Source: a virus. Taken from it: a stretch of 64,000 bases of DNA. The translations under genes were made by a program, and so were the position numbers. The notes below the pieces were generated by a model that saw nothing but the letters and a program-made list of their open reading frames with translations, ran no database searches and had not been told where the DNA came from. The DNA lies in IMG/VR virus record IMGVR_UViG_3300047444_000783, positions 1 through 64,000 of that record; one strand, 5' to 3'. This document shows, one piece after another, positions 1 to 8,027 of this stretch (position 1 is the stretch's first letter; each line of letters begins with the position of its first letter).

Positions 1-355
1 GTTGACGTTGCGGCCGGACGTGACAAAAAGTGTCACTTGGATAAGGAAAACGAATACATAGAATGAGTAGCTTAGAAGCAACACTAATGCGACTGCCGTA
101 AATTGTCATCGAGCTAGATGTGAGTGTAGTCAAGTCAGATAAAATAGTTTACGCCGTAGAACCAGGCACTTACAGACACGTGTTGTTTAAGGAATTAAAC
201 GGTATTACAGTGACGGCATGGTTCGTATTCACAAGCCGAACGTCTTTAGCGGCCACGCGGTATCCGCCGCAACCGCACCTTGGCGTCAACCCAATGACGC
301 GAATATATACGTTGTCTACTGTGCCGAATCGGCACACTGGAAGGAATTACCTGAT

Positions 356-457
356 ATGAGCACAGACTTTCGCGGCTTCGTCTTGATCGTGACGATCTGC
401 GTGGGAATACTCCTTGTATACGCTGCAATCGCAGCATGGAGGGACAGACGTGGTTAA
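356..457 (+). CDS. small single-TM membrane protein (33 aa)
   Basis: ATG at 356 after AAGGA; MSTDFRGFVLIVTICVGILLVYAAIAAWRDRRG. Confidence 0.55.
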   Translation: MSTDFRGFVLIVTICVGILLVYAAIAAWRDRRG

Positions 458-605
458 AGGATTGAAATGCTTTTGTTTAACCGTGTTCACGGTATCCGCC
501 GGTTTGTTCTTGGCAACCGTCTGGTTCACTGAATACACATGGTGCTTCTTAACGCTGGCGATTGTGAGTGCGTTGTCAGCCATCCTGATGCTGGAGGTCC
601 GATGA
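450..605 (+). CDS. small membrane protein, 2 predicted TM (51 aa)
   Basis: GTG at 450 after GGAGGG; hydrophobic; overlaps both neighbours. Confidence 0.55.
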   Translation: MVKGLKCFCLTVFTVSAGLFLATVWFTEYTWCFLTLAIVSALSAILMLEVR

Positions 606-829
606 GTAAGACGACATTGTTGACGGTTGGGGCGATTAAGAACGCAGTCGAAGCCGGGAACACGGTGTACGCGGGAACGAAGGCGTATCGAGTCATTAAA
701 GACAGTCTTGGTCAATGGCTGATCAAGTGTGATCTGAACGGGTATTGCATCGGCCTGACGTGGAGGGATGGTCAGACGCTGAATGGTAATCCTGGGGATT
801 TCTTCATAGAAAGAGAGGAGTCGAAATGA
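602..829 (+). CDS. hypothetical phage protein
   Basis: ATGA overlap, GGAGG SD; MSKTTLLTVG... Confidence 0.7.
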   Translation: MSKTTLLTVGAIKNAVEAGNTVYAGTKAYRVIKDSLGQWLIKCDLNGYCIGLTWRDGQTLNGNPGDFFIEREESK

Positions 830-1308
830 GACGCGTAGAAATCAAGAGCATGATCGACACAACGTACACGGATGACGAATTGGCAATCGCGGTAGTTGGG
901 AGTTTGTCCTCCCTGCCGGGGATTGAGCGGGTACAGACGTTCGCGCCGCGTGCGATGGATGTGAAAGAGGTTGGGTATTCGCAGCCGATGACCAAGGGAC
1001 GGCAGATGCTGACGGACGTGGTTAACCGATGCGCCAGTGAAGGAGCGCAGGTGATTGAGAACAAACCGTGTGAGCACGTGGATTATGACGAAGCGCAGGA
1101 TGGTCACGTGAAATGCCGCACGTGCGGGTTGGAGGCAGAGATCCAACCGTGCGTGGTCTGCGGTGAGTACAGCGTGCTTGTGGAAGTTGGGGATAGTGAG
1201 AACGTGATTCGACCGTGCGATACCGAAGGTTGCGCGGGTTCCCAAGAGCAAGTGTGTGACGACTGTCGTTCGAACGGTCCGCAGAGCAAGTGCGGACATT
1301 GGAAGTAA
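826..1308 (+). CDS. hypothetical protein with Cys-rich (zinc-binding) C-terminus
   Basis: AGGAG SD, ATGA overlap; CRTC, CVVC and CDDC pairs. Confidence 0.7.
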   Translation: MRRVEIKSMIDTTYTDDELAIAVVGSLSSLPGIERVQTFAPRAMDVKEVGYSQPMTKGRQMLTDVVNRCASEGAQVIENKPCEHVDYDEAQDGHVKCRTCGLEAEIQPCVVCGEYSVLVEVGDSENVIRPCDTEGCAGSQEQVCDDCRSNGPQSKCGHWK

Positions 1309-1365
1309 CGCAGATGGGCGGGGCGATTGCCCCGTTAATGCGGCCTGACGGTCCACAGCCCGTCA
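1309..1365 (+). ncRNA. twister ribozyme copy 1 (type-P5-like permutation), predicted cut U1336^A1337
   Basis: CGCA-GA-UGG-[P1 GCGGGGC/GCCCCGU]-UAA-UGCG-GC-[P4 UGACGG/CCGUCA, loop U-CCA-CA-GC]; T2 UGG:CCA, T1 GC:GC. Confidence 0.9.
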
Positions 1366-1388
1366 AAATCAAACCGCTGGAGATACCG

Positions 1389-1844
1389 ATGGAAACGAAC
1401 TTGGATAAGGTGACAAAGCCTCTGACGCTCGCTGAGTTTCGCGCGACCGGCAGGATTGCGCTGGTTGATGAGACGGGTGAAGTTCATTCGAATGCCGGCC
1501 ACTTCGACGGCGAAGTCTCTTACGGCCGTGTTTACGAATTAGGTTGCTTCATCTACCTGGACATCGACGCAACCCCAACAATTCCCGCCACATGGAGACT
1601 GGTTATCGAGCGTTCCGAGTACGAGGGGAAACTTTCAGACATGGAAGAGGTTTTGTATCGCACGTGGTACCTGCCGGAATGCTGTGGTTACGATCTGGCA
1701 ACCGAAGTCTTTGAGCGGGTGTGTCAGGCGATGCAACCGGCGGAGGAAATGGGCGGACTGACGAGCACGGGCTACATTGATCTGATGATGAAGGTGGCGC
1801 GGGAGGCTGAACGGCGAGCGGTCACGTGCGCCACGCTCAGGTAA
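1389..1844 (+). CDS. hypothetical phage protein
   Basis: GGAG SD then ATG at 1389 (METNLDKV...); the track's longer start runs through the ribozyme. Confidence 0.75.
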   Translation: METNLDKVTKPLTLAEFRATGRIALVDETGEVHSNAGHFDGEVSYGRVYELGCFIYLDIDATPTIPATWRLVIERSEYEGKLSDMEEVLYRTWYLPECCGYDLATEVFERVCQAMQPAEEMGGLTSTGYIDLMMKVAREAERRAVTCATLR

Positions 1845-1845
1845 A

Positions 1846-1902
1846 CGCAGAGGGGCGGGCAGAGATGCCCGTTAATGCGGTCAGCCGGTCCCAACCCCGG
1901 CT
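1846..1902 (+). ncRNA. twister ribozyme copy 2, predicted cut U1873^A1874
   Basis: CGCA-GA-GGG-[GCGGGCA GAGA UGCCCGU]-UAA-UGCG-GU-[AGCCGG U-CCC-AA-CC CCGGCU]; T2 GGG:CCC; T1 has one U.C mismatch. Confidence 0.88.
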
Positions 1903-1928
1903 AAATCAAACCGTGATGGAGTCCACCG

Positions 1929-2414
1929 ATGTCCACTGTTCAACCCACCGTGCTCACCAAAGAGCATATTCACTTCATTCGGAAAGCAAATAAGTCCATC
2001 GTCTTCCGGTACATCCAAGGCCGTCAGTCGATTGAGATTGAGAACGAGATAGGCGCAGAACTGAAGATCGACGCTGGTTTCTACTATCGGGGATACGGGA
2101 ATACGGAACCCGGGACGCCTGAGCGTGAACCGCACAAAGCGTTCGACATGATCCACACACCATCCTGGGACCAGCCTTGGCAGACGGTTATCGCGCTGTT
2201 AAAGCCGGGGGATACGCTGAATGTCCGCTGGTTGGCGAATACGAACGGGTATGTCGAACGCGCGACGTTCGCAGGCGATAAGGATTGCGAATCGTTCAAT
2301 GCTCTGCATATGGATCAGGTTTTCGTGGAGATCGTGCGTGGTAAGCAAGTCCTGACGTTCGCGGTGGGTTTGTCGGTATGCCCGCAGAACAGTGCGCGGA
2401 TGTTCCAATACTGA
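1929..2414 (+). CDS. hypothetical phage protein
   Basis: GGAG SD, 161-aa ORF between ribozymes 2 and 3. Confidence 0.75.
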   Translation: MSTVQPTVLTKEHIHFIRKANKSIVFRYIQGRQSIEIENEIGAELKIDAGFYYRGYGNTEPGTPEREPHKAFDMIHTPSWDQPWQTVIALLKPGDTLNVRWLANTNGYVERATFAGDKDCESFNALHMDQVFVEIVRGKQVLTFAVGLSVCPQNSARMFQY

Positions 2415-2416
2415 AT

Positions 2417-2475
2417 CGCAGAGCGGTCCCCACTTCAGTGGGGATTAATGCGGGCGCACGGTCGCAACCCCGTGC
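2417..2475 (+). ncRNA. twister ribozyme copy 3, predicted cut U2446^A2447
   Basis: CGCA-GA-GCG-[GUCCCCAC UUCA GUGGGGAU]-UAA-UGCG-GG-[GCACGG U-CGC-AA-CC CCGUGC]; T2 GCG:CGC, T1 GG:CC; possible P5 UGAAU(2412-2416):AUUCA(2478-2482). Confidence 0.93.
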
Positions 2476-2498
2476 AAATTCACTCGCAGGAGAATCGA

Positions 2499-3134
2499 AT
2501 GAGAATCAAAGAGACAAAACTCTACAAGTTCGACGAACTGTCAGATCGGGCCAAAGAGAACGCGCGTGACTGGTGGAGACAGATGGAAGCTGAGAGTCAG
2601 GACAATAGCTTCGCAGAGTTTGTGATCGACGATGCGGAGAAGATTGCTGAGATCCTTGGCATTGAACTTAAAACCAGGCCCGTCAAGTTGATGGGAGGAG
2701 GCACGCGCTACGATCCGTGCATCTGGTGGAGTCTCGTGTACTCTCAGGGCGATGGTGCATCGTTCGAAGGACGGTATCGGTATGCGGCGGGGAGCGTGAA
2801 GAAACTAAAAGAGCACGCACCCCAGGATGAGAAGTTGCACCGGATTGTCGAAGGTCTAGCTGCGATCCAGCGGCGCAACTTCTACCGTGGGGTGATCGAC
2901 ATTGGGCAGCGAGGCAACTACACACACTCCTATTCGATGGACTTCAGCGACGTGTCGGACCGTGAATTGTCAGGCGAGGACTATGGCGGCCTGTGTGAAC
3001 TTCTACGCGATTTCGCGGACTGGATCTACCGGCAATTGCAGGCAGAGTACGAGTACCAGAATGCGGATGCTCAGGTAGATGAGGCAATCCAGGCGAACGA
3101 GTACGAGTTTACAGAAGAAGGGAGACGCTCATGA
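2499..3134 (+). CDS. conserved mobile-element protein (family often labelled 'antitoxin of TA stability system'; function unproven)
   Basis: YKFDELSDRAKENARDW, SQGDGASF, WIYRQLQAEYEY and IQANEYEFTEEG motifs; AGGAG SD, ATG at 2499. Confidence 0.7.
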   Translation: MRIKETKLYKFDELSDRAKENARDWWRQMEAESQDNSFAEFVIDDAEKIAEILGIELKTRPVKLMGGGTRYDPCIWWSLVYSQGDGASFEGRYRYAAGSVKKLKEHAPQDEKLHRIVEGLAAIQRRNFYRGVIDIGQRGNYTHSYSMDFSDVSDRELSGEDYGGLCELLRDFADWIYRQLQAEYEYQNADAQVDEAIQANEYEFTEEGRRS

Positions 3135-3379
3135 GCGAAGACAAAGAACTGACGATCTACGAGGCACTGAAAGCCGCGGGCGTACCGCTGGACTCGCACG
3201 AGTCGGACCTGTACGCGCTGGTCACACCCGAGAGCACACGAATTGTCGAAGCGTATCGCTTTCGCTCGAACGTCACGACGTTCGTCAGCCAGATCGACAA
3301 GAAACGCTGGTACGACATTCCATTTGCCTACCTGCCGTTCTGGGAGAAGAAATCGAAAGGGGGTGAGGTTATTGGGTAG
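3131..3379 (+). CDS. hypothetical phage protein
   Basis: ATGA overlap; HESDLY...W.DIPFAY.PFW. Confidence 0.75.
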   Translation: MSEDKELTIYEALKAAGVPLDSHESDLYALVTPESTRIVEAYRFRSNVTTFVSQIDKKRWYDIPFAYLPFWEKKSKGGEVIG

Positions 3380-3383
3380 ATAA

Positions 3384-3453
3384 CGCAGAGGGACGGCCGT
3401 GTGTGTGGAAGCCACGGCCGGTAATGCGGCGGACTGGTTCCCAAGTGCCAGTC
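3384..3453 (+). ncRNA. twister ribozyme copy 4, predicted cut U3422^A3423
   Basis: CGCA-GA-GGG-A[CGGCCGUG..CACGGCCG]G-UAA-UGCG-GC-[GACUGGU U-CCC-AA-GU GCCAGUC]; T2 GGG:CCC, T1 GC:GU. Confidence 0.88.
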
Positions 3454-3479
3454 AAATCACACCGCTGGAGAAATCGACA

Positions 3480-4010
3480 GTGAAACTCGAAATCAAAGGA
3501 CTCAAGACCTGGAAGACGGACGATGGCGGCGGCTACCAGTACACACTAATGGTCGATGGACGGCGCGCGGCATTCGTACATAACGATGGCAATGGTGGCG
3601 GTTCGCGGTTCGATACGACACCGAGAGTGGGAGACGACAAACTGTTTGAGCAATTCGCGGACTACGTGGCAGCCTTACCGTTATCCGCATGGGACCATCC
3701 GATATTGGGCAATCTGTTCGATCCGAAAGAGAACCGTGGAGCATGGTACGAGGAAGCGACGCCTGAAGAACGTGCGCGACACGACCGTGCGAGTAAGGTG
3801 GAGATTTACGCCGAGCGTCTAGTGGATGAGTTTGAAGAGGCGAAACAGATGAAACGATGGTGCGCGAAAAAGACGGTCGTGCGGCTGAAGACGCACAAAC
3901 CGGAACAGTACCTGATCTACCCGATGCCATACACGGCGGCATTCGCTGAGAAGCTACGGGCGAAGCATGGCGAGCAGTTGGTAGAGATCGTAAACGAACG
4001 ATTCGTCTAA
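3480..4010 (+). CDS. hypothetical phage protein
   Basis: GGAG SD, GTG at 3480; NDGNGG motif. Confidence 0.75.
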   Translation: MKLEIKGLKTWKTDDGGGYQYTLMVDGRRAAFVHNDGNGGGSRFDTTPRVGDDKLFEQFADYVAALPLSAWDHPILGNLFDPKENRGAWYEEATPEERARHDRASKVEIYAERLVDEFEEAKQMKRWCAKKTVVRLKTHKPEQYLIYPMPYTAAFAEKLRAKHGEQLVEIVNERFV

Positions 4011-4011
4011 A

Positions 4012-4071
4012 CGCAGACGGGTGGCGTGCGAACGCCACTAATGCGGTCGCTGCCGGTCCGAAACCCGGAGC
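4012..4071 (+). ncRNA. twister ribozyme copy 5, predicted cut U4039^A4040
   Basis: CGCA-GA-CGG-[GUGGCGU GCGA ACGCCAC]-UAA-UGCG-GU-[GCUgCCGG U-CCG-AA-AC CCGGAGC]; T2 CGG:CCG, T1 GU:AC. Confidence 0.93.
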
Positions 4072-4094
4072 AAATTCAACCGCTGGAGATGGAC

Positions 4095-4316
4095 ATGCTT
4101 CAGAAAGACATTCAGAAGGGCAAGTTGTACACGATCAAGCATCATGACGGGCAAATCTACACGGTGCGTGTGGATGGTATCGGTTCGCGCCGAACATTCG
4201 GTTCGCGTGACGGGGTGAGTAAGACGCTCGTGCGGTATCTCTGCACGAAATTGGCAACCGGCAATTCGATCATCGTGAAGTCGGCCGCGAAGTTTCGCGA
4301 GGAGGTAGCCCAATGA
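4095..4316 (+). CDS. small basic SH3/KOW-like hypothetical protein
   Basis: GGAG SD; MLQKDIQKGKLYTIK... Confidence 0.7.
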   Translation: MLQKDIQKGKLYTIKHHDGQIYTVRVDGIGSRRTFGSRDGVSKTLVRYLCTKLATGNSIIVKSAAKFREEVAQ

Positions 4317-4927
4317 TTTTCGAATTCAAGAACATGGTGCAGAAGTCTGACGGCGAGTGGCGCTACCAGACGGCAGAAACTGGCGAGGTCATACGCGTGG
4401 TCGTGCGGTACATCAAGAGTGCGAGCGCCTCGCGTCGAGGTATCCACGTGTCGGTCGAACCCTGGACGATCGAACCGGCAGGAGATCGCGGCTTTTCGAC
4501 TGAATCCACGACCCTGATGTCGGATGCGAGCACGTTTGTCGAGCACCTGGCGCGCATCAAACCGAGTGCGGTCGCGCAAGTTGCGGCAAAGATCGACGCC
4601 CACGCGCCGGCATTCGCTCAATTCTTCCGCCTGGAGGGCCAAGACAAAACCAAACAGGCGTTGAAAGCGTTTTTCGAGGCAGGAACTCTGCCGGTTGTCA
4701 GTACGCAGAGTGTGAGCGTTGAGCGAACGAAGCTGGCGTTGAAGCGTGACCCGCTAGTGCCGGTCGGTCAGACGTCACCATTGCATGTCGATTGCCCGTG
4801 CGGTCGCGCGATCCTGATTATTACTGAGTTAAACGGGTGTCACGGCTGCGGGTTGGTCGTGGACAGTGCCGGTTGGATAAAGGGCAACGATGCTGTTCGC
4901 ACGCCAGACGGTTGGATGTTCATATGA
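4313..4927 (+). CDS. hypothetical protein with C-terminal zinc ribbon
   Basis: GGAGG SD, ATGA overlap; CPCG...CHGC. Confidence 0.7.
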   Translation: MIFEFKNMVQKSDGEWRYQTAETGEVIRVVVRYIKSASASRRGIHVSVEPWTIEPAGDRGFSTESTTLMSDASTFVEHLARIKPSAVAQVAAKIDAHAPAFAQFFRLEGQDKTKQALKAFFEAGTLPVVSTQSVSVERTKLALKRDPLVPVGQTSPLHVDCPCGRAILIITELNGCHGCGLVVDSAGWIKGNDAVRTPDGWMFI

Positions 4928-5052
4928 GTTATCAATTCTGGCCGTCGCAGCGGGATCAGGAGCCGCCCAACCATGGTAACTGGCGCGCGGGTCTGTTCGT
5001 GATCGGAATGATCTGGGGTCTGATCTATCTGATCCTGAGGTTCTTCAGATGA
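4924..5052 (+). CDS. small single-TM membrane protein (42 aa)
   Basis: ATGA overlap; GLFVIGMIWGLIYLIL. Confidence 0.55.
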   Translation: MSYQFWPSQRDQEPPNHGNWRAGLFVIGMIWGLIYLILRFFR

Positions 5053-5105
5053 CGCCACTAACCAAACCACTGACGCGCAGATCAGCGGCTGTCATTCGCA
5101 ACTAG
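5049..5105 (+). CDS. possible 18-aa mini-ORF MTPLTKPLTRRSAAVIRN
   Basis: ATGA overlap with the upstream stop, GAGG upstream; ends 8 nt before ribozyme 6. Confidence 0.35.
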   Translation: MTPLTKPLTRRSAAVIRN

Positions 5106-5113
5106 AAAATAGA

Positions 5114-5170
5114 CGCAGAGCAGCCCCGCCACGGCGGGGTTAATGCGGCGGTCCGGTTGCAAGCCCGGAC
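5114..5170 (+). ncRNA. twister ribozyme copy 6, predicted cut U5141^A5142
   Basis: CGCA-GA-GCA-[GCCCCGC CACG GCGGGGU]-UAA-UGCG-GC-[GUCCGG U-UGC-AA-GC CCGGAC]; T2 GCA:UGC, T1 GC:GC. Confidence 0.93.
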
Positions 5171-5197
5171 TAATTCAACCGCGCAGGATGGAACGAT

Positions 5198-5395
5198 ATG
5201 AAGTACGTAGTTACCGTAACGCAGACAGCCAAAGAACTGTCAGACGTCGATGACATGCAAGACAACCCGTCAGGGAGTTATGAGATTGAGGCGCGGTCTG
5301 CGGATGCGGCGCTTGACGAATTTCACGCAACGGTCCCGATTGGGTGCCTTGAGGACTTCGAAATCATCGTGGAACAGGAGACGACCAATGGTTAG
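5198..5395 (+). CDS. small acidic hypothetical protein
   Basis: 65-aa ORF directly after ribozyme 6. Confidence 0.7.
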   Translation: MKYVVTVTQTAKELSDVDDMQDNPSGSYEIEARSADAALDEFHATVPIGCLEDFEIIVEQETTNG

Positions 5396-5636
5396 GACAT
5401 TCGACGAAACAAAGGACCAGGTGCTCGATTCGCGCACGGGGATCGAGCGCGAGCGCACGCGCATCCTCGTACAGATCTGCAGCTACAACGGCGGTCAGGC
5501 GAAGTTGCAGTTGAAGCGCGAGAACAAGTCGAGCGACGGCTGGACGTTCGCAAAACTGGGGCGCATGACGGGCGAGGAGTTTAGCGAACTCGTGCCGGTC
5601 GCGCTCGAACTGATCGACGCAAACGGGGTGAAGTGA
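5388..5636 (+). CDS. hypothetical protein, possibly PC4-like ssDNA-binding fold
   Basis: AGGAG SD, ATG at 5388; VQICSYNGGQAKLQLKR...KLGRMT pattern; fold is a guess. Confidence 0.55.
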   Translation: MVRTFDETKDQVLDSRTGIERERTRILVQICSYNGGQAKLQLKRENKSSDGWTFAKLGRMTGEEFSELVPVALELIDANGVK

Positions 5637-5637
5637 A

Positions 5638-5892
5638 ATGAAAGAATTTGCATTTGACGTCCAATTGCAAGCGGTTGTTCGCGTCCAGGCGGAGACCGAA
5701 GCGGAGGCGAGGGAGGCGCTTGAGAACATGCAGGCTGTTGATTGCTCTGTTGTTGAGGCGCGGGAGGGCCTAGCGGCTGACGAGGACTCACTGATCGTGC
5801 TAGACCGTGGAACCATGCGCGTCACAGAGATCAGCTCGATACCGACAACGATCCATATGTTTGAACTGGATGGAATTGAGGTAAGTGGATAA
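5638..5892 (+). CDS. acidic hypothetical phage protein
   Basis: VRVQAETEAEAREAL motif, common in small phage proteins. Confidence 0.7.
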   Translation: MKEFAFDVQLQAVVRVQAETEAEAREALENMQAVDCSVVEAREGLAADEDSLIVLDRGTMRVTEISSIPTTIHMFELDGIEVSG

Positions 5893-6059
5893 TGCCAAAC
5901 ATGGAGTACGTCCGATTCGAGAACACATTGCACGATCTTCGCGATTGCCAGGAGCATATGGACGACGAGTTACAGCCTGCCGAAGCGAAGGCACAGTTGC
6001 GGCTGGTCAAACTCTGCAGGCAGATCGCAGGAGACTACGAACACTTAGAATCTGAGTAA
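5892..6059 (+). CDS. small phage protein (55 aa), not in the ORF track
   Basis: TAATG overlap; MPNMEYVRFENTLHDLRDC...; stop 1 nt before ribozyme 7. Confidence 0.7.
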   Translation: MPNMEYVRFENTLHDLRDCQEHMDDELQPAEAKAQLRLVKLCRQIAGDYEHLESE

Positions 6060-6060
6060 T

Positions 6061-6119
6061 CGCAGACCACTGGCGTCTCCGGACGCCAGCAATGCGGGCG
6101 GCCGGTTGGAACCCCGGCC
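6061..6119 (+). ncRNA. twister ribozyme copy 7, predicted cut C6090^A6091
   Basis: CGCA-GA-CCA-[CUGGCGUC UCCG GACGCCAG]-CAA-UGCG-GG-[GGCCGG U-UGG-AA-CC CCGGCC]; T2 CCA:UGG, T1 GG:CC. Confidence 0.9.
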
Positions 6120-6142
6120 AAATTCACTCGCAGGAGAATCCG

Positions 6143-6307
6143 ATGAAGGTACAGAAGTGCACGGAATGCGATAAACGATCATTGCCTGGATTGAAAGCAG
6201 GTAAAGGTAAGTGCCAATACCATTGGAACGTCGGCGTATGGGGAAAACAATGGGCAGATAGGGTCCTCGCTGAAGTTCGAGACTTTTCGAAGCCGAAGGA
6301 GGCATGA
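6143..6307 (+). CDS. small zinc-finger protein (54 aa)
   Basis: AGGAG SD; CTEC...CQYH. Confidence 0.65.
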   Translation: MKVQKCTECDKRSLPGLKAGKGKCQYHWNVGVWGKQWADRVLAEVRDFSKPKEA

Positions 6308-6483
6308 TGTCATTCTCAAAAACGACACAATACGACGGTATCCACATCACCCTTGCCATTGACGACATGGACCTCGTGTGCTGGACAGGCCGGATGCAGG
6401 TGGAAACGCTGGAGATCAAGCATATCCCCGTCGATGTTCAGACGTACATCCGCAAGATCGAGCGGGAGAGGTTCGACTTATGA
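6304..6483 (+). CDS. hypothetical protein (59 aa), not in the ORF track
   Basis: GGAGG SD, ATGA overlaps at both ends. Confidence 0.6.
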   Translation: MMSFSKTTQYDGIHITLAIDDMDLVCWTGRMQVETLEIKHIPVDVQTYIRKIERERFDL

Positions 6484-7349
6484 ACGCCTGGTTGTACGCG
6501 CGCGTCTCCACCTACAGCAATAACTGTAACAACTGCCGAAAGACCTTTCTGGATTCGGCAAAGTCTCCGGTCTGCCCGGTCTGTGGCTCGTCGGATGTGC
6601 AGAAGTCGCAGGATACGGAGAATCAGATGATCGTCCTTCGTCAGTGGATGGCGAGTCTGGGCCACACGGTTACGGCAGTCTACGAGGATCGCGCGAGCGG
6701 CAAGACGGGTGAGCGCGAGCAGTTCAAGAAGATGATGCTCGATATACGGGCGCGCCGGCCGCGGGCACCAATAGTTGTCGGATTCTGGGCGCTCGACCGG
6801 CTGTCGCGTGAGGGCGCGCTCGCGACGCTGAAGTACCTGCAGGACATCACGAACATGGGCGCTCACGTGAAATCGTATACCGAGCAGTACCTGGACACGA
6901 TGGGACCGTGGGGCGAGGCGATCATTGCGTTCCTGGCAACGATTGCCAAGCAGCAGCGCATCCGCCTGGCCGAGAATACGCGAGCCGGGATCGAGCGCGC
7001 GCGGATTCATGGGACGAAGAGCGGGAAGCCGCACGGTCGCCCACAGAAGTTCTCACGTGCGGAGGCACTGGCGATCTTCGAGCAGTTGAAATCGTATCGA
7101 GGGACGGCTAGAGTGCTGGGAGTCTGCCAGACGGCCGTCCGTAACGTCATTCTGGGAAGGCAGGAGGAAGTCCCAACGACAATCGAGTGGAGTGACCCCG
7201 TATGGGGGCGACTCGTCGATGGTCTGTTTGTTGAAGCGGTCGATGGGCGCACGGTCGTGCGGTACGATCTGGGCACGCAGCAGGCGCATTGTTTGAATCA
7301 TCAGCAGTTGCTGTCACTCTGTCGGCATCTGCACACACTAGACGAATAA
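6480..7349 (+). CDS. serine recombinase (resolvase/invertase family) with zinc-ribbon insertion and C-terminal HTH
   Basis: YARVST catalytic Ser, YEDRASG, LDRLSR, TRAGIERAR...GK..GRP, HTH SYRGTARVLGVCQTAV. Confidence 0.9.
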   Translation: MNAWLYARVSTYSNNCNNCRKTFLDSAKSPVCPVCGSSDVQKSQDTENQMIVLRQWMASLGHTVTAVYEDRASGKTGEREQFKKMMLDIRARRPRAPIVVGFWALDRLSREGALATLKYLQDITNMGAHVKSYTEQYLDTMGPWGEAIIAFLATIAKQQRIRLAENTRAGIERARIHGTKSGKPHGRPQKFSRAEALAIFEQLKSYRGTARVLGVCQTAVRNVILGRQEEVPTTIEWSDPVWGRLVDGLFVEAVDGRTVVRYDLGTQQAHCLNHQQLLSLCRHLHTLDE

Positions 7350-7362
7350 AGGAGAAACACAC

Positions 7363-7776
7363 ATGAGCACAAGTATGGTAGTGAACACCCGGAGAGTTGA
7401 GCGCGGTAACCTAAGTAACGAACAGTTCAGCTATGCCCTTGCGCGCGCGCTGTACGAAACACGACAAGAGGCTTACGTGGCAGAATCCGAGGCGAGCGTG
7501 AAGCCTCGCGACGTCGGTTCGGACTTCGACACGGATCGCTTCATCGCCGAGGATGCGGTTGTATTCGACAAGCATCGCGTGAAGGAAGCGTTTGATCTGT
7601 TGGTTCTGGCCGAGGATGCGCTGATCGCGTGGGCAGACAAGTGCGCGCGCCGCAATCTGGGCAAGACGCGGTATCGCCAGATTGAAGAGGTATTCAAGAC
7701 CGCGACATCCAGCGGGATGAAGCACCGGCTGCTCAAGATCTGCATGGAGATGAAAGACGAGAAAGGGGGCGTATGA
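7363..7776 (+). CDS. hypothetical protein
   Basis: AAGGAG SD, 137 aa. Confidence 0.7.
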   Translation: MSTSMVVNTRRVERGNLSNEQFSYALARALYETRQEAYVAESEASVKPRDVGSDFDTDRFIAEDAVVFDKHRVKEAFDLLVLAEDALIAWADKCARRNLGKTRYRQIEEVFKTATSSGMKHRLLKICMEMKDEKGGV

Positions 7777-8027
7777 GCAGACGTTGCCGAGCACCGGAAC
7801 CTGACTGTTACGACTACGTGCGGCGCTATTACGGAGTTCCAGCCTACATTGGAGTGCGCGTACAGGTCGGAGAGAAGGAGGGCGTGATCGTCAAATCGAA
7901 CGGTTCGCCATACGTACACATCAAACTAGACGGAGCGAAGCACGCCAACCCGTACCATCCGACCGATCCAGCCTTGAAGTACCTCATCGAGAGACGGGCT
8001 GGGATCGGTCAGTCGGGGGGCGTATGA
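7773..8027 (+). CDS. hypothetical phage protein (SH3-like)
   Basis: YVRRYYGVPA.IG.RV...G.I...YHPT motif. Confidence 0.75.
   Translation: MSRRCRAPEPDCYDYVRRYYGVPAYIGVRVQVGEKEGVIVKSNGSPYVHIKLDGAKHANPYHPTDPALKYLIERRAGIGQSGGV

Follow-up and report, generated by a model that had tools for sequence, protein, structure and literature searches.

A strand downstream of phage type-P5 twister ribozymes that covaries with helix P2 and may refold the cleavage product

The 64,000 nucleotides (nt) analysed here, referred to as the window, make up the beginning of the IMG/VR phage record IMGVR_UViG_3300047444_000783, which is 109.6 kb long and rated complete. They carry seven type-P5 twister ribozymes, each followed by a short module that consists of a linker, a strand complementary to the 3′ strand of the ribozyme's own helix P2 (anti-P2 strand) and a Shine-Dalgarno (SD) sequence. 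Judged from sequence comparison with twisters of other phages, the anti-P2 strand is a real, selected and covarying accessory that some phage type-P5 twisters carry; that it acts as a post-cleavage refolding element is the best-supported explanation and, in our estimate, about evenly balanced. No earlier description of the linker and anti-P2 strand was found in the literature searched, which excluded Roth et al. 2014 and Felletti et al. 2017, and such a strand on twisters is apparently undescribed so far.

In the nomenclature used here, P2 is formed by a 5′ CGCA with UGCG, T1 connects L1 (GAGNG) with L4, and T2 is formed by the "GN" right after UGCG, which pairs with L4 (PMC5408937). In all seven copies a 7-nt linker after P4 is followed by ACCGC, ACCGUG or CUCGCA and, after a gap of 0–2 nt, by the SD, with the start codon 6–9 nt after GGAG or AGGA. 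The first-pass annotation, whose region began with the linker of copy 1 and ended with the start codon after copy 7, had described this arrangement together with pairings to (U)GCGG(N) that span 4 bp in three copies (1, 4 and 6), 5 bp in one (copy 5) and 6 bp in the other three (2, 3 and 7), and all of these were confirmed. It had also stated that the strand is mutually exclusive with P2 and a pseudoknot; the exclusion holds, and the pseudoknot concerned is T2 instead of T1, as the G after UGCG belongs to T2 (PMC5408937). Its proposal that the strand also follows the sixth base, N, was dropped, since the first base of the strand matches N38 no more often than expected by chance (4/7 copies in the window and 17/64 homologues) and N is already constrained by its T2 partner.

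Homologues were collected from viral contigs by a pattern scan followed by a covariance model of our own, which gave 185 twisters, and two more scans, one of them aimed at P2 = CACA:UGUG, raised the total to 224 twisters in 182 flank clusters. A metagenome scan returned mostly chance pattern matches and 24 additional twisters, while a scan for patterns with a variant P2 and the spacer fixed at 6 nt yielded just 4 loci. An SD and a start codon were present within 120 nt in 171/185 viral twisters, mostly 15–35 nt past P4, and a stop triplet was located 0–3 nt upstream in 133/185. Between P4 and the start codon of the UGCG-type viral flanks, CGCA was the top enriched tetramer apart from the SD: it occurred in 54/124 flank clusters versus 16.0 ± 3.4 in dinucleotide shuffles (maximum 27 in 1000), CCGCA in 27/124 versus 3.9 ± 1.8, and none of the other permutations of the CGCA letters in more than 20. 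When one twister was drawn per contig, CGCA was found in 32.4/93 versus 12.2 ± 3.0. The strand lies at either of two distances after P4, 1–6 nt or 10–14 nt, and the second class has a G-poor linker resembling AAUYYCA, as do the window copies; relatives of this linker occur in other phage arrays.

Covariation was assessed in the non-redundant viral and metagenome twisters (UGCG type, n = 152; UGUG type, n = 37). CGCA was found in 61 UGCG-type flanks (18.9 ± 4.1 in shuffles), in which CCAC was at the null (13). The UGUG type had CCAC in 14 flanks (4.8 ± 1.8) and CACA in 13 (7.7 ± 2.0), with CGCA at the null (5). The two types differed for all three tetramers (Fisher tests: CGCA p = 0.002, CACA p = 0.011, CCAC p = 4e−5), and against composition-matched shuffles either P2 type was enriched solely for its own complement, so that the strand matches the P2 type across homologues, a check that the first-pass annotation had suggested. 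In an alignment fitted to the alternative helix, positions U3, G4, C5, G6 and G7 were paired in 51, 61, 55, 60 and 55 of approximately 62–65 sequences and the sixth position in 17/64; such a fitted alignment leans towards structure, and the case therefore rests on the unfitted k-mer tests.

The letters of the strand are the same as those of the 5′ P2 strand, and identity alone cannot tell a strand that pairs with UGCG from a copy of CGCA. The flanking bases are informative in this respect. A C stands before the 3′ strand in 33/66 cases (background 21%, p = 2e−7) versus 1/168 for the 5′ P2 strand, and 13/66 of the 3′ strands have UU directly behind them (background 4%, p = 2e−6), which extends the complementarity to G37 and to the first two nucleotides of the product, A1 and A2, and identifies the partner as AAUGCGG, the 5′ end of the product. 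As the strand covers G37, which is needed for T2, this helix is incompatible with an active ribozyme, and UGCGG has two mutually exclusive pairings, one with the 5′ CGCA together with T2 and the other with the 3′ strand. The rarity of C before the 5′ P2 strand in the UGCG and UGUG viral twisters fits selection that keeps G37 free for T2; the A/U-rich bases at this place come from the stop codon of the upstream gene.

Within the window, pairwise identity among the seven copies is 76% in the linker and 67% in the strand, compared with 27% in the P1 loop, 43% in the P1 stem and 47% in the outer P4, where the sequence is free to vary. Gene conversion would homogenise P1 too, and the conservation of linker and strand while P1 drifted thus points to selection on their sequence. 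The gap between strand and SD varies from −1 to 15 nt elsewhere, which makes the tight fusion seen in this phage a lineage trait. The first A's of the linker may correspond to the A-rich junction after P4 in unpermuted twisters.

Folding was evaluated with nearest-neighbour energies only, giving no credit to T1 and T2. The minimum free energy (MFE) structure of the precursor retains the native P2 in all seven copies, the native fold being ahead of the alternative by 0.8–3.7 kcal/mol, and in the free 3′ product the stem with the anti-P2 strand is worth −2.9 to −5.2 kcal/mol. Across 67 strand-bearing homologues, the median ΔΔG (alternative minus native) was +2.3 kcal/mol, with the native fold ahead in 55. 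P2 is also transcribed ahead of the anti-P2 strand, and a native fold that is favoured before cleavage, a stem that is favoured afterwards and a P2 that comes first together make the signature of a ratchet. The helix is predicted to start at nucleotide 3 of the product, or at nucleotide 1 where UU follows the strand; in the product MFE structure P4 lies inside it and the SD is left with weak pairing or none, so that a hairpin is predicted to remain at the 5′ end of the product, directly upstream of a free ribosome-binding site (RBS). The stem forms in the product MFE structure of six of the seven copies versus 4 ± 1.4 with shuffled flanks, which is not decisive within the window alone, and copy 4 is predicted to prefer a different pairing from CCGC:GCGG. 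A hairpin closing on the new 5′ end before the SD, as one of the two readings in the first-pass annotation had it, is consistent with all of these computed results.

According to the post-cleavage model, UGCG would pair with the 5′ CGCA (P2) in the intact transcript, with the next G engaged in T2, and the ribozyme would cut before AAUGCGG. The upstream messenger RNA (mRNA), now present only in trans, would carry at its 3′ end the GC-rich P1 hairpin and a 2′,3′-cyclic phosphate, and the downstream (C)CGC(A) would take over (AA)UGCGG; P4 would thereby be enclosed by a stem that leaves no more than two 5′ nucleotides unpaired and lies right before the free SD. Such a stem would expel the 5′ product and render the cut irreversible, and it would place on the 5′-OH mRNA a terminal hairpin of the type that shields bacterial mRNAs from 5′-end-dependent decay. 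We infer this order of events, as well as a benefit through release, stability or translation, from the predicted folds, and each processed mRNA may in this way be structured at both ends, with the P1 hairpin at its 3′ end and the new stem at its 5′ end. A broader reading, which we consider possible though doubtful, is that soil phages use a natural "cistron cassette" in which one twister strand is employed twice, initially in P2/T2 and then in a 5′ cap helix by which the upstream mRNA is ejected and cleavage is locked, leaving mRNAs that are hairpin-protected at both ends; in its boldest version the toggle would also read the ribosome terminating upstream and time the cuts by translation.

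Several observations weigh against the post-cleavage model. The alternative helix is predicted to be stabler than the native P2 in 12/67 homologues, and an identical complementarity would serve an inhibitory fold before cleavage. A test for pairing of the 5′ strand with the flank in MFE structures was discarded for its poor discrimination, because approximately 51% of flanks pair with this free, GC-rich strand even after shuffling (viral set 119/176 versus 89 ± 4.9; bacterial set 47/83 versus 43.4 ± 3.3). The strand is missing from over half of the comparable phage twisters and is not enriched in twisters from bacterial genomes (17/80 versus 12.7 ± 2.9), a set in which one Acidobacteriota family with another context prevails, and it is therefore dispensable for the ribozyme. 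Many strand-bearing copies are paralogues within arrays, so that the counts are not fully independent. Finally, the linker is conserved as much as the strand, and the model gives no account of it.

The complementarity could instead be used before the cut. A ribosome-independent attenuator, in which the strand rivals P2/T2 in the precursor and sets the fraction or timing of cleavage so that some polycistronic RNA survives, appears unlikely to us. The alternative fold must be inactive, since the strand covers G37 (T2) and sometimes both A's of the cleavage site, it is the predicted stabler one in the 12/67 homologues noted above, and the strand is transcribed only 10–20 nt after P4; however, the native secondary structure leads in all seven window copies and in most homologues even before T1 and T2 are counted, P2 is the first to form during transcription, and an inhibitor has no need of the extreme 5′ end of the product. 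We find quite unlikely the other reading of the first-pass annotation, a translation-coupled switch in which the 5′ P2 strand and L1 are hidden under a ribosome terminating 0–5 nt before CGCAGAG, so that UGCGG is left to pair with the 3′ strand and cleavage is delayed until upstream translation stops. The extent of the ribosomal mRNA channel is such that a terminating ribosome must cover CGCAGAG (P2 and L1), and translation and ribozyme folding would thus interfere physically. The two folds differ by little in energy, and the proximity of stop triplets in phage twisters is repeated in the window, where 6/7 copies have a stop 0–4 nt before the ribozyme, but this adjacency is explained by the tight packing of phage genes by itself. 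Moreover, the strand is unrelated to stop adjacency (45/120 adjacent versus 22/48 non-adjacent twisters, odds ratio 0.71, p = 0.38), a helix of 4–6 bp that closes a loop of approximately 35 nt is no lasting trap, and copy 6 bears the strand although no open reading frame of at least 30 amino acids ends within 60 nt upstream of it.

Two further explanations start from the arrays and from the origin of the cassette, respectively. A freed UGCGG could disable the next ribozyme through its CGCAGAG, and the local strand might guard against such cross-talk by occupying UGCGG. All seven copies share the P2 CGCA:UGCG, and the strand is commoner at loci with at least three twisters (44/73) than at single-copy ones (25/70; odds ratio 2.7, p = 0.004), but array copies are paralogous and the association may reflect descent, many single twisters also bear the strand, and the guard is a variant of the post-cleavage model and not a distinct mechanism; we rate it as very unlikely. 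Equally small is the weight that we give to a functionless remnant, in which the 3′ CGCA would be a direct repeat of the ribozyme start left by the tandem duplication or circular permutation behind type-P5 cassettes. In unpermuted twisters, as we take the O. sativa sequence to illustrate, the 3′ strand of P2 follows P4 via a short A-rich linker. The four letters equal the 5′ P2 strand and change with it (CACA type), and some copies read CGCAGAG, as at the ribozyme start. The flanks, on the other hand, are consistently unlike those of the 5′ strand, with C before and UU after, the commonest form in the window, CCGC, is one base off CGCA, the linker length falls into two classes, and the strand is conserved where the P1 sequence is randomised.

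The coordinates of the seven copies and their modules are given in Table 1. Rfam model RF02684 (Twister-P5; gathering cut-off 37.6 bits) scored the seven cores at 44.1–59.1 bits, all above the cut-off, and P1, P2 and P4 are present in the permuted order P2(3′)-P1 hairpin-P2(5′)-P4. The cells of P1, P2, P4, T1 and T2 are 97% paired among the seven copies, and those of the stems 95% in 114 distinct homologues. All 7 pairs of P1 covary, with changes on both sides; the three pairs of T1 also change on both sides and are 100% paired in the window; T2 has its G-C pair in 6/7 copies and a second pair (CG, GC or UA) in 5/7. P2 is an identical CGCA:UGCG in all seven copies, P4 is 6–7 bp long, and N-AAUGCGG (with the conserved A 3′ of the scissile bond) as well as the L4 motif GGU...A..CC are invariant in the alignment. 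On score and covariation, the seven are genuine members of the twister class, which is said to go back to Roth et al. 2014, and cleavage is predicted before the conserved A, so that every 3′ product would start with AAUGCGGN.

Table 1. Predicted twister ribozymes and downstream modules in the window (positions in nt; SD, Shine-Dalgarno sequence)
Feature	Position	Strand	Details
Twister-P5 copy 1	1309..1363	+	Rfam 55.2 bits; predicted cleavage 1336/1337; product start AAUGCGGC 1337-1344
Copy 1 linker AAAUCAA	1366..1372	+	
Copy 1 anti-P2 strand ACCGC	1373..1377	+	CCGC pairs with GCGG 1340-1343
Copy 1 SD GGAG	1379..1382	+	ATG at 1389
Twister-P5 copy 2	1846..1900	+	Rfam 59.1 bits; predicted cleavage 1873/1874; product start AAUGCGGU 1874-1881
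Copy 2 linker AAAUCAA	1903..1909	+	
Copy 2 anti-P2 strand ACCGUG	1910..1915	+	6 bp with UGCGGU, two of them G-U
Copy 2 SD GGAG	1918..1921	+	ATG at 1929
Twister-P5 copy 3	2417..2473	+	Rfam 55.3 bits; predicted cleavage 2446/2447; product start AAUGCGGG 2447-2454
Copy 3 linker AAAUUCA	2476..2482	+	
Copy 3 anti-P2 strand CUCGCA	2483..2488	+	6 bp with UGCGGG
Copy 3 SD GGAG	2489..2492	+	ATG at 2499
Twister-P5 copy 4, long P1	3384..3451	+	Rfam 47.9 bits; predicted cleavage 3422/3423; product start AAUGCGGC 3423-3430
Copy 4 linker AAAUCAC	3454..3460	+	
Copy 4 anti-P2 strand ACCGC	3461..3465	+	CCGC:GCGG; other register CGCUG:CGGCG possible
Copy 4 SD GGAG	3467..3470	+	GTG at 3480
Twister-P5 copy 5	4012..4068	+	Rfam 46.0 bits; predicted cleavage 4039/4040; product start AAUGCGGU 4040-4047
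Copy 5 linker AAAUUCA	4072..4078	+	
Copy 5 anti-P2 strand ACCGC	4079..4083	+	5 bp with GCGGU
Copy 5 SD GGAG	4085..4088	+	ATG at 4095
Twister-P5 copy 6	5114..5168	+	Rfam 57.7 bits; predicted cleavage 5141/5142; product start AAUGCGGC 5142-5149
Copy 6 linker UAAUUCA	5171..5177	+	
Copy 6 anti-P2 strand ACCGC	5178..5182	+	CCGC(G) with (U)GCGG
Copy 6 SD AGGA	5185..5188	+	ATG at 5198
Twister-P5 copy 7	6061..6117	+	Rfam 44.1 bits; predicted cleavage 6090/6091, C not U before site; product start AAUGCGGG 6091-6098
Copy 7 linker AAAUUCA	6120..6126	+	
Copy 7 anti-P2 strand CUCGCA	6127..6132	+	6 bp with UGCGGG
Copy 7 SD GGAG	6133..6136	+	ATG at 6143

Two other roles for parts of the module were considered and not adopted. 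Twisters may carry an optional stem, P5 (PMC5408937), and the coding 5′ flank was compared by eye with the linker; no consistent complementarity was seen, as the pairing is convincing only in copy 3 (UGAAU:AUUCA) and the other copies need distant or crossing pairings, so that a P5 helix is unlikely as the general explanation of the linker. The SD as a mimic of the L1 strand that pairs with L4 (T1) was discarded too, because T1 covaries with L1 (GUG:CAC, CCA:UGG and others) and the SD is a constant GGAG.

DNA of this phage occurs in soil and rhizosphere metagenomes. The seven twisters all lie on the plus strand at 1.3–6.1 kb; Rfam searches detected no further ribozymes or remnants at positions 1–8000 (E ≤ 1) and no other twister in the whole genome. 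The small genes that line up in this region have no Pfam matches, and the series closes with a serine recombinase (6480–7349), the sole Pfam match among ten neighbouring proteins. Every gene junction of this early operon (826–6483) is either an overlap of 1–4 nt (translational coupling) or a twister, and no promoter-like or terminator-like sites above chance were found between genes on the plus strand, so the region reads as one transcript cut into approximately eight pieces, and the products would be working mRNAs. As predicted from this layout, processing would yield about eight mRNAs, with between one and four genes on each. Gene-length cutting of phage transcripts by ribozymes was proposed for prophage hammerheads in 2011 (PMC3088659), and a 2019 review considered such ribozyme-punctuated layouts still unproven (PMC6765202).

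The 61 nt at 5053–5113, between a TGA (5050–5052) and copy 6, hold CGCAGAU (5076–5082), followed by a small hairpin, CAGCGGCUG (5083–5091), and by UCAUUCGCA (5092–5100). No Rfam match was obtained for this segment at E ≤ 1, and from its sequence it looks like a collapsed older twister in which the 5′ strand and the linker and strand were kept and the core was lost. Nearly identical 3′ modules (AAAAUCAAACCGC..AGGAG) accompany the twisters of IMGVR_UViG_3300046543_000595 (107 kb), which is probably a relative of this phage. Many genomes of Acidobacteriota (Terriglobales, Sulfotelmatobacter) bear twisters of the form CGCAGAGCA...[C/G]AAUGCGGCA; there, an ATG approximately 18–20 nt past P4 opens a conserved small open reading frame with no SD, a context unlike that of the phage arrays.

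The role of genomically encoded self-cleaving ribozymes in bacteria and phages is a long-standing question, and most of them are functional orphans according to a review (PMC6765202). A strand that is conserved and covaries, with no evident partner other than the 5′ end of the product, implies that selection acts on what becomes of this product, which argues that the cut RNAs are working mRNAs and not waste. The vague proposal that ribozymes process polycistronic phage RNA thereby becomes directly testable. If the post-cleavage model is true, these modules would be a natural counterpart to engineered ribozyme insulators and an example of a ribozyme with a built-in conformational ratchet acting after the reaction.

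Compared with known systems, all cores of the window match Twister-P5, with P1, P2, P4, T1 and T2 supported by covariation, but the Rfam model stops at P4, and the linker and the anti-P2 strand fall outside it. Stem-loops with very few unpaired 5′ nucleotides protect mRNAs in E. coli, and a helix within approximately 2 nt of the 5′ end guards against 5′-end-dependent RNases. Emory, Bouvet and Belasco reportedly found in 1992 that 5′-terminal stem-loops of the ompA type stabilise bacterial mRNAs, and the 5′-OH product of the glmS ribozyme is said to be decayed by RNase J1 (Collins et al. in 2007); RNases are known to act on 5′-OH products of ribozymes. The phage modules are similar in that the helix is predicted within approximately 2 nt of the 5′ end of a 5′-OH product, and by analogy it may be protective. 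Prophage hammerhead operons (Perreault et al. 2011, PMC3088659; PMC6765202) are similar in that several ribozymes separate single genes or short gene blocks within one phage transcript, which they are proposed to cut into gene-length mRNAs, but those reports give ribozymes and positions only and describe no downstream strand that re-pairs the new 5′ end. In RiboJ, the sTRSV hammerhead is combined with a 23-nt hairpin before the RBS, and mRNA and protein levels are raised, for which the retained terminal hairpin is the suggested cause (PMC6206723). Self-cleavage in this device strips off the RNA upstream, and the new 5′ end before the RBS then carries a hairpin, as is predicted for the phage modules; RiboJ, however, is engineered, based on a hammerhead and equipped with a separate, pre-formed hairpin, whereas the phage stem is predicted to use a strand of the ribozyme's own P2 and to be full only after cleavage.

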